Sequence record: OZ035810.1
Length of the DNA: 64,000 nucleotides
Source of the DNA: Gamaleyavirus AN24P2
Strand: one strand, 5' to 3'
A model generated the notes under the pieces. The model made no database searches and was not told the DNA's origin. It was given only the letters and a program-made list of their open reading frames with translations. Every line of letters starts with the position of its first letter. The first letter of the stretch is position 1. A program made the position numbers and the translations under genes. This document shows positions 33,308 to 33,383 of the stretch, in pieces.

Positions 33308-33383
33308 TGGTTACCCAGGCAGGATTCGAACCTGCGTCCTAGTTGGTTTACTAGTGGGGCTTTACCACTAAGCCTACTGGGTA
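33308..33383 (-). tRNA. tRNA-like gene with aberrant anticodon arm, CCA encoded
   Basis: Perfect acceptor TACCCAG/CTGGGTA, D stem GGCT/AGCC, T arm GCAGG-TTCGAAT-CCTGC, 3' ACCA; the 21-nt anticodon region only folds as CTAG/CTAG with an 8-nt loop or CTAGT/ACTAG with a 6-nt loop. Confidence 0.45.

Follow-up and report, generated by a model that had tools for sequence, protein, structure and literature searches.

What is a gene with the shape of a transfer RNA (tRNA) and no canonical anticodon loop doing in the genome of a phage? The question is raised by a 76-nt element on the minus strand, read from 33383 to 33308, of a 64,000-nt stretch of Gamaleyavirus AN24P2 (record OZ035810.1; the whole stretch is called the window below), an N4-like Escherichia coli phage of the Schitoviridae. 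The original prediction for this locus was a tRNA-like gene with canonical acceptor, D and T arms and an anticodon region that cannot form a 5-bp stem with a 7-nt loop. It left three readings to choose from: a frameshift-suppressor tRNA, a tRNA-like processing element or a pseudogene. The reading that survived our analysis is the tRNA-like element. We put at roughly 55% the probability that, as the sequence comparisons suggest, the locus is a member of a conserved, non-decoding, tRNA-derived RNA family found in the tRNA clusters of virulent enterobacterial phages and acting through its tRNA core. The RNA is probably a maintained tRNA mimic, and not a frameshift-suppressor tRNA or a fresh pseudogene.

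Numbered from position 1 (33383) to position 76 (33308), the RNA reads UACCCAG-UA-GGCUU-AGUGGUA-AAGCC-CCA-CUAGU-AAACCA-ACUAG-GAC-GCAGG-UUCGAAU-CCUGC-CUGGGUA-A-CCA. Its parts are as follows.

33308 to 33383, minus strand: whole tRNA-like RNA gene, 76 nt including the encoded ACCA tail (ARAGORN; Rfam tRNA, 42.8 bits; family model R1, introduced below, 99.1 bits).
33377 to 33383, minus strand: 5' strand of the acceptor stem, UACCCAG, pairing with 33312 to 33318 (CUGGGUA) (RNAfold).
33358 to 33374, minus strand: D arm GGCUU-AGUGGUA-AAGCC, with A14, G18 and G19 in place (Rfam alignment, RNAfold).
33355 to 33357, minus strand: CCA connector of 3 nt between the D stem and the anticodon-arm stem (RNAfold), in the 'xCC' form common to all homologs.
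33339 to 33354, minus strand: non-canonical anticodon arm CUAGU-AAACCA-ACUAG, or CUAG-UAAACCAA-CUAG (ARAGORN, RNAfold).
33336 to 33338, minus strand: variable region GAC, 3 nt, the final base being position 48 (RNAfold).
33319 to 33335, minus strand: T arm GCAGG-UUCGAAU-CCUGC (Rfam alignment, RNAfold).
33308 to 33311, minus strand: discriminator A73 and encoded CCA, a tail that varies among orthologs.

The predicted gene was recovered by independent callers. ARAGORN reported tRNA-??? at 33308-33383; the anticodon it gives has only two bases, 'ac', which corresponds to a 6-nt loop. The Rfam tRNA model RF00005 (gathering score 29) gave 42.8 bits, with E = 9.8e-6 over the whole window; its alignment covers the acceptor, D and T arms and bypasses the anticodon arm as an 18-nt local end. 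For the identical element in phages UE-S5b and UE-M6, the published tRNAscan-SE label is 'tRNA-Undet-NNN' (PMC11927229). The minimum-energy structure given by RNAfold was a cloverleaf (−27.1 kcal/mol; z = −2.84 vs shuffles), in which the anticodon arm folds as a 5-bp stem (CUAGU/ACUAG) with the 6-nt loop AAACCA. The sole alternative register has 4 bp and an 8-nt loop. Both folds had been named in the original prediction and both are possible, the 6-nt loop being favoured by RNAfold. As predicted, no register of this arm gives a 5-bp stem with a 7-nt loop, and none presents a U33, a 3-nt anticodon and a purine 37: A stands in place of U33, also in the 8-nt register with its 4-bp stem, and there is no fixed purine-37 context.

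Compared with a canonical elongator tRNA, the element shares the 7-bp acceptor stem, the bases that make the tertiary contacts of the L shape (U8, A14, G18G19, the T loop UUCGAAU and a covarying 15-48 pair) and the location in a tRNA cluster. It differs in the anticodon arm and in two oddities that had not been predicted: the connector from the D arm to the anticodon stem is 3 nt long, against 1 nt (nucleotide 26) in canonical tRNAs, and the variable region has 3 nt (2–3 nt across homologs), against 4–5 nt or a long arm. An assembly artefact is ruled out, because 4 metagenome contigs and at least 14 phages, sequenced independently of one another, have the same arm.

We compared the element with its orthologs in close relatives. 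In a blastn search of the phage collection it was present in 19 Gamaleyavirus-type records, against 103 that match the surrounding 3 kb; it also occurred in 4 metagenome contigs, and phages Bas96 and PD205 are without it at the same locus. The orthologs comprise ten distinct sequences, one of them from a metagenome contig, and the architecture of the anticodon arm was identical in all of them. A normal 7-nt loop, which the original prediction had named as the sign of decay here, was found in none. Of the 72 body positions, nine are variable; the four that fall in helices all keep their pairing. The acceptor pair A6-U67 of AN24P2 is G-C in most orthologs, with a G.U intermediate in phage 24-32N, which amounts to full compensation; G49-C65 becomes G.U, and the loop-closing U34-A41 becomes U.G (the base at 33343 is A or G). 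Not one of the 220 pair cells within Gamaleyavirus held a non-standard pair. The sole variable mid-loop base, at 33345, is C, G or U.

The Levitt pair changes jointly from G15-C48 to A15-U48 in phage CU10EC, and the same switch has occurred twice independently. This covariation shows that the RNA is held to the L shape of a tRNA body. The 3' tail evolves fastest. The predicted encoded CCA is present in AN24P2 but is conserved in only 6 of the 10 distinct sequences, the others ending in UCA, UUA or UCC, and the discriminator is A, G or C. Such variation in the discriminator and tail argues against dependence on one aminoacyl-tRNA synthetase. Aminoacylation by a specific synthetase appears unlikely, because the discriminator varies and the RNA has neither a G3.U70 pair nor a long variable arm.

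Homologs beyond Gamaleyavirus were found by iterated blastn and pattern scans. They have in common a core made up of a 7-nt acceptor strand, a D arm of the form UAGGCUUA..GG and a T arm RCWGG-UUCGAAU-CCWGY. They also have the odd connectors, 'xCC' 5' of the anticodon arm and 2–3 nt 3' of it, which are kept in at least four phage groups. The lineages are only about 73–76% identical. Their anticodon arms are covarying hairpins of 5–7 bp with loops of 3, 4, 7, 8 or 9 nt, mostly without U33 or a purine at 37, as listed here.

Enterobacter phages SABI and SonariX and several IMG/VR and metagenome contigs (not classified): arm CCCAG-[A/G]ACUUAAGA-CUGGG with a 9-nt loop (CCCAG-RACUUAAGA-CUGGG).
Klebsiella phage 05F01 (Stephanstirmvirinae): arm CCCAA-GACUUAAGA-UUGGG.
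Klebsiella phage KP8 and relatives (N4-like, Kaypoctavirus): arm CAUAGCA-GGCA-UGUUAUG.
Klebsiella phage NDO71 (Mydovirus): arm CGCAGCA-GGCA-UGUUGCG.
E. coli phages UPEC06 and A7_1 (Vequintavirinae): arms CGCAACG-UCU-CGUUGUG and CACAACG-UAU-CGUUGUG.
About 60 Phapecoctavirus genomes (Stephanstirmvirinae): arm CACAA-(CUUA/UUUA/CUA)-UUGUG, no CCA.
phiEB49, a 47-kb E. coli phage: arm CGUAC-UUAACAA-GUAUC.

Unannotated homologs are present in Phapecoctavirus and Vequintavirinae genomes (sources L083-L087, that is phAPEC8, phiWec188, Mt1B1_P17, A7_1 and anhysbys, and about 60 further records); those of Phapecoctavirus sit between tRNA-Ile(GAU) and a 'pseudo' tRNA-Met. In the Phapecoctavirus copies the arm has shrunk to 5 bp with a 3–4-nt loop, the CCA is lost and positions 1 and 72 are mismatched. 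GenBank labels family members tRNA-OTHER, Thr, Leu, Gln or Val, or leaves them unannotated. In every case the element sits within a tRNA cluster or at its margin; its neighbours there differ (Ile, Gln, Thr, Tyr or Arg), and it is therefore independent of any one of them.

A covariance model of the family, R1, was built on 16 members. Members scored 60–100 bits; in the first 45 sources searched, no canonical phage tRNA exceeded 47.5 bits, the highest scores being those of an Asn-GUU and a Thr-CGU. As to a host origin, blastn against 5,426 complete E. coli genomes gave no match, and no family member turned up when 185,579 species genomes were scanned by pattern. In pattern scans of IMG/VR and metagenomes, which were not exhaustive (the first gapped scan overlooked the true match L035), members were found only in L013, L035, L050, L053, L059, L071-L073, L079 and L080.

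Covariation was tested on an 18-sequence model alignment of the family. The acceptor stem is 99% paired and the T stem 100% paired across the family, with six of seven and two of five pairs, respectively, changed on both sides. In the anticodon-arm stem four of five pairs are changed on both sides, despite a one-column misalignment for two subgroups; family-wide, 12 of the 22 pairs show such double changes. The covariation score was 0.326, compared with 0.144 in shuffles (0 of 500 reached 0.326) and at most 0.118 when the partners were slid, figures to be read with the facts that the sequences are few and related, that shuffles ignore phylogeny and so overstate significance, and that a model alignment leans to structure. 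RNAalifold independently recovered the same helices, and the loop-closing pair is backed by UA, UG and CG variants. On comparative grounds, these results establish purifying selection on the tRNA core in several phage lineages. By the same comparisons, what is retained of the 'anticodon' arm is a hairpin, whose sequence and loop size vary, and not an anticodon loop.

This pattern bears directly on the possibility that the element is a slowly decaying pseudo-tRNA, perhaps a former tRNA-Val(AAC) or tRNA-Asn-like gene, which has no function of its own and survives only through its place in a tRNA cluster, having had too little time to vanish. Several observations would fit such decay. The element is absent in about 80% of close relatives, its CCA tail and discriminator drift, and other degenerate tRNA-like pieces lie in the same island. 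Loop sizes differ from lineage to lineage as if the arm had been broken independently, the Phapecoctavirus copies show the losses described above, and phiEB49 retains a canonical-looking loop. Against it stand the complete lack of broken pairs within Gamaleyavirus and the compensatory double changes between lineages as diverged as these, seen in three stems (acceptor, T and anticodon arm) and at 15-48. The unusual connectors have moreover been kept across the phage groups, and phage genomes are compact and deletion-prone. We consider decay unlikely, although it is to be taken seriously. In every helix the changes preserve pairs or compensate for each other, and the pseudogene reading of the original prediction is at odds with this.

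Could the RNA nevertheless decode with a non-standard loop, either as a +1 quadruplet suppressor or as an 8-nt-loop reader of triplets, for example of Val codons via AAC? The possible 8-nt loop UAAAC(N)AR contains AAC, the anticodon assigned by ARAGORN to the phiEB49 homolog. The form UAAAC(N)AA can be read as the phiEB49 loop with a U33A change and one inserted base, and the variable N resembles the base inserted 3' of the anticodon in suppressors of the sufA6/sufB2 type. A73 and A35-C36 are identity elements for valyl-tRNA synthetase, and GUU makes up 40% of the Val codons of this phage. Apart from their 8-nt anticodon loops, the +1 suppressors sufD, sufA6/sufB2 and sufJ are canonical tRNAs; they retain U33, and their expanded anticodon is conserved. 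Our element resembles them in that an 8-nt loop is one possible fold, in which the extra base could lie 3' of AAC, but it differs in having A at 33, an 'extra' base that is C, G or U, a favoured 6-nt loop and homologs with closed hairpins. Triplet reading through a natural 8-nt anticodon loop does exist: yeast mitochondrial tRNA-Thr(UAG) decodes CUN triplets with a defined anticodon (PMC7609411). The two share a natural enlarged loop apparently maintained by selection; in the phage RNA, by contrast, there is no sign of decoding.

Most of the evidence goes against a decoder. Position 33 is A and not U. The closing U-A of the minimum-energy 6-nt loop becomes U.G or C-G in relatives and thus behaves as a pair. 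Because the C/G/U variation in mid-loop falls inside or beside any quadruplet, orthologs would read different codons. The geometry of the connector and variable region is non-canonical, and the loops of sister lineages, 3–4 nt on 7-bp stems or 9 nt, would be unable to present an anticodon. The discriminator varies among family members, the element is missing in 84 of the 103 close relatives with the same gene set, and neither tRNAscan-SE nor ARAGORN assigns an anticodon. A decoding role is therefore, in our estimation, improbable, and the frameshift suppressor of the original prediction is not supported, in view of the base at 33, the variable mid-loop base, the favoured fold, the loops of relatives and the absence from about 80% of them.

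Several observations on the loops themselves are recorded here. The complement of the AN24P2 loop, UUGGUUUA, occurs 5 times in the window vs about 2 expected. Its 10- and 12-mer extensions into the stem are confined to the locus itself, and no antisense target was found. The arms of several subgroups share [A/G]AC, a 'Val anticodon', which we judged compatible with chance for a 3-mer. The 9-nt loop has ACUU--AA in common with ACUUUUAA, a possible mimicry of tRNA-Lys that is suggestive only. Two non-canonical loops hold 6-nt palindromes: [A/G]A-CUUAAG-A (L011 434-442, L013 and L036) and GUGCAC-A (window, about 34024-34030). The first of these has the format of the kissing loop of the HIV-1 dimerisation-initiation site, which consists of two purines, a 6-nt palindrome and A. 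Loop-loop dimerisation, or a protein site at the DNA level, is thus a possibility for the palindromic loops, as a post hoc idea.

The genomic context bears on a different alternative. The tRNA-like gene and a tRNA-Ile lie in an ORF-poor island (ORF, open reading frame) of about 900 nt, from 34120 to 33200. In minus-strand order the region encodes a Sak4-like annealing protein, an N4-type single-stranded DNA-binding protein, a RuvC-like resolvase and a 147-amino-acid (aa) protein, followed by the island, a 58-aa ORF and a terminator. This block converges on the plus-strand gene for the virion RNA polymerase (3,458 aa). The features around the element are these.

33226 to 33301, minus strand: canonical tRNA-Ile(AAU), co-oriented with the tRNA-like gene and 6 nt downstream of it (ARAGORN; Rfam, 65.6 bits).
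33399 to 33417, minus strand: hairpin GCCAG-UUAAAGC-CUGGC, about 15 nt upstream of the tRNA-like gene.
34058 to 34078, minus strand: hairpin CCAGG-UGGAAUC-CCUGG, about 15–20 nt upstream of a tRNA-like cassette.
32949 to 32980, minus strand: strong intrinsic terminator, a 13-bp stem followed by a U run, 3' of the 58-aa ORF; it closes the minus-strand unit.
32393 to 32773, minus strand: 126-aa ORF directly beyond the terminator (Pfam PF13876, N4 gp49 / Sf6 gene 66 family).

The tRNA-like gene and tRNA-Ile(AAU) are presumably co-transcribed. The element could then be cis-acting 'tRNA punctuation', in which the fold recruits RNase P and defines the ends of neighbouring RNAs and the excised product is inert. 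Such a role would suit a gene that precedes tRNA-Ile by 6 nt in a non-coding island closed by a strong terminator, and also the fact that the conserved part is only the acceptor/T/D core, with any hairpin serving as the arm. That core is the part of a tRNA recognised by RNase P. However, the tRNAs of the cluster are already RNase P substrates, so that an extra non-decoding one would be superfluous, and the neighbours differ between phages. Furthermore, F22 and Uz-1 list tRNA-Ile or tRNA-Xle at the locus and are missing from the list of records with a match to the element. Punctuation, which we regard as the main alternative, is in our view still distinctly unlikely.

What, then, might a maintained, non-decoding tRNA shape do? 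We infer that the function is that of a tRNA mimic or decoy, or of a processing element. If the element is a mimic, it would share a minus-strand transcript with tRNA-Ile(AAU), at the far end of the replication (middle) block of genes. It would then be excised like a tRNA, by RNase P and then by 3' exonucleases or the CCA-adding enzyme; such maturation is expected because the acceptor/T minihelix and the elbow are intact. A stable L-shaped RNA unable to pair with a codon would accumulate. The mechanism we judge most likely is molecular mimicry, in which a host factor that recognises tRNA shape would be occupied or titrated and the RNA would not enter translation. The obvious candidate partners are anti-phage nucleases or toxins that target tRNA, and naming one would be speculation.

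A more specific form of this proposal, which we hold only tentatively and think unlikely as it stands, is that N4-like, rV5-like and phAPEC8-like coliphages carry a dedicated tRNA mimic that matures like a tRNA, is barred from translation by an anticodon arm that is closed or of the wrong size, and neutralises an immunity factor recognising tRNA shape. Candidate targets of such an RNA decoy would be factors such as an anticodon nuclease or a toxin that modifies the acceptor end. A decoy would explain both the patchy, cassette-like distribution within an accessory region and the contrast between a fast-evolving arm and a frozen core.

Known systems provide partial parallels. Phage tRNAs are documented counter-measures to tRNA-cleaving defences, as with T5 tRNA-Tyr against Retron-Eco7 (bioRxiv 10.1101/2023.03.15.532788) and with anticodon-loop variants (PMC10264068). 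Like the present element, these are tRNA-cluster genes whose anticodon loops diverge from those of the host, and counter-defence is a plausible selective force. They are, however, functional, decoding replacements with 7-nt loops, whereas this RNA cannot replace a cleaved tRNA and would at most be a putative decoy. The pseudo-tRNA tRNA-Other of Bacillus cereus has a regulatory role reported to be non-translational, with a demonstrated phenotype in cell wall and antibiotic resistance (PMC3399842). It too is tRNA-shaped, retained and called 'Other' or 'Undet' by gene finders, but it is chromosomal, has a Gram-positive host and an unrelated sequence, and its phenotype has been established by experiment. 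In the tRNA-like domains of YrlA, a bacterial Y RNA, and of mascRNA, as here, a non-decoding helix replaces the anticodon arm on an acceptor/T/D-like core. YrlA differs in its length (about 110 nt) and its Ro-binding helix, and there is no Rsr/Ro context here. The window element matched the YrlA model (RF02553) at 17.3 bits, well below the gathering score of 69 (E = 0.95). Of the Rfam families, only tRNA was matched in the window; below threshold were this YrlA match and an antisense match of a chloroplast untranslated-region family on tRNA-Ile. A literature search found no paper that treats the element as a family or analyses its structure, only the tRNAscan label 'Undet'. The element has thus already been seen by annotators, as Undet or OTHER, and is not a separate Rfam family.

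Some results weigh against a non-decoding family under selection, beyond the limits of the covariation test given above. The phiEB49 homolog has a canonical-looking 7-nt loop, UUAACAA, and is called tRNA-Val(AAC) by ARAGORN, so that at least some members may decode or may have decoded until recently. The limit between members and true tRNAs is blurred in Phapecoctavirus, where R1 gave the homologs 52–55 bits and the adjacent tRNA-Ile 50.7. Because only 19 of 103 close relatives carry it, the element is accessory in the Gamaleyavirus group, and any benefit must be conditional. Finally, the efficacy of a stoichiometric decoy against a catalytic nuclease is not obvious.

The surroundings of the element are themselves variable. 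Blocks of the island are mosaic, with 80–98% identity to Kaypoctavirus, to 05F01 and to Gamaleyaviruses that are without the element. The A34 of the neighbouring tRNA-Ile fits the codon usage of the phage, in which AUU is 59% of the Ile codons; A34 is unusual in bacteria apart from tRNA-Arg(ACG). The Bas96 ortholog of this tRNA-Ile has kept its acceptor and T arms, has its centre replaced and is 85 nt long; it is annotated tRNA-Val and receives no ARAGORN call. In phages E20 and PW8 the sequence of the upstream hairpin is replaced and its shape kept (5–6 bp, 7-nt loop). Possible roles for the upstream hairpins are those of promoter, processing site or cassette boundary. As a repeated motif the hairpin was rejected, GAGCCAG-N7-CTGGCA having 15 matches in the window, with 3 mismatches allowed, vs 14.3 expected. 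An 83-aa ORF with a GTG start (33296-33547, plus strand) overlaps the tRNA-like gene on the opposite strand; it is probably spurious, because the substitutions among orthologs are RNA-like and preserve pairs. Homologs of the 126-aa ORF in relatives are automatically labelled 'DUF2829 domain-containing' or 'anti-CRISPR protein', labels for which we found no experimental basis; they give a weak hint that the stretch may be an accessory or counter-defence region.

Other tRNA-like pieces lie in the same island. One is a 67-nt RNA (33986-34052, minus strand), with homologs at L038 2112-2178, L039 2055-2121 and L036 1289-1357. It has a 7-bp acceptor stem (UCCGGUG/CGCCGGA), an A-CCA tail, a T arm UCUGG-UUCGAGU-CCAGA and a single central hairpin, with no D arm. 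The 7-nt hairpin loop GUGCACA is conserved, and the central stem covaries (CGUU/AACG here, CCCU/AGGG in 05F01). This RNA was missed by ARAGORN and by Rfam at the gathering threshold; its published tRNAscan-SE label is 'tRNA-Cys-ACA' (PMC11927229). For a coliphage, a conserved armless tRNA would be noteworthy in its own right. A degenerate piece at 33893-33971 (minus strand) has a good T arm (UAAGG-UUCGAAU-CCUUA) and a bulged acceptor stem and scored 18.4 bits with R1. A structured element of about 105 nt (window about 33686-33795, minus strand; L011 about 481-590; L013 about 400-500, minus strand) has a closing stem of 8–9 bp (UUGAGAUG/CAUCUCAA) followed by A-CCA-like bases, contains the motifs GUAAC.GUUAAAUCC and GCUGCCAAUGU, and has no Rfam match. 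It travels with the 9-nt-loop subgroup, lying directly downstream of that RNA in SABI/SonariX and in contig L013, where the closing stem differs and is still complementary (CAGAGUG/CACUCUG). KP8 carries a further, distinct tRNA-like RNA (L038 1248-1322) with the closed arm ACGAC-ACAG-GUCGU, called tRNA-??? with anticodon 'ca' by ARAGORN; as a family it was rejected, being confined to KP8 and PW7.

A tRNA shape that is kept in several lineages of coliphages and cannot decode fits neither the usual explanation of phage tRNA genes, codon supply, nor the more recent one, replacement of tRNAs cut by host defences, and points to a function that would use the tRNA shape alone. In dozens of phage genomes in GenBank the element is unannotated or variably labelled, and a family model would unify its annotation. 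If true, the decoy would be a new class of RNA anti-defence element. If the decoy idea fails, the family would still show, as a clean case from nature, how much remodelling of the anticodon arm a tRNA body can tolerate.

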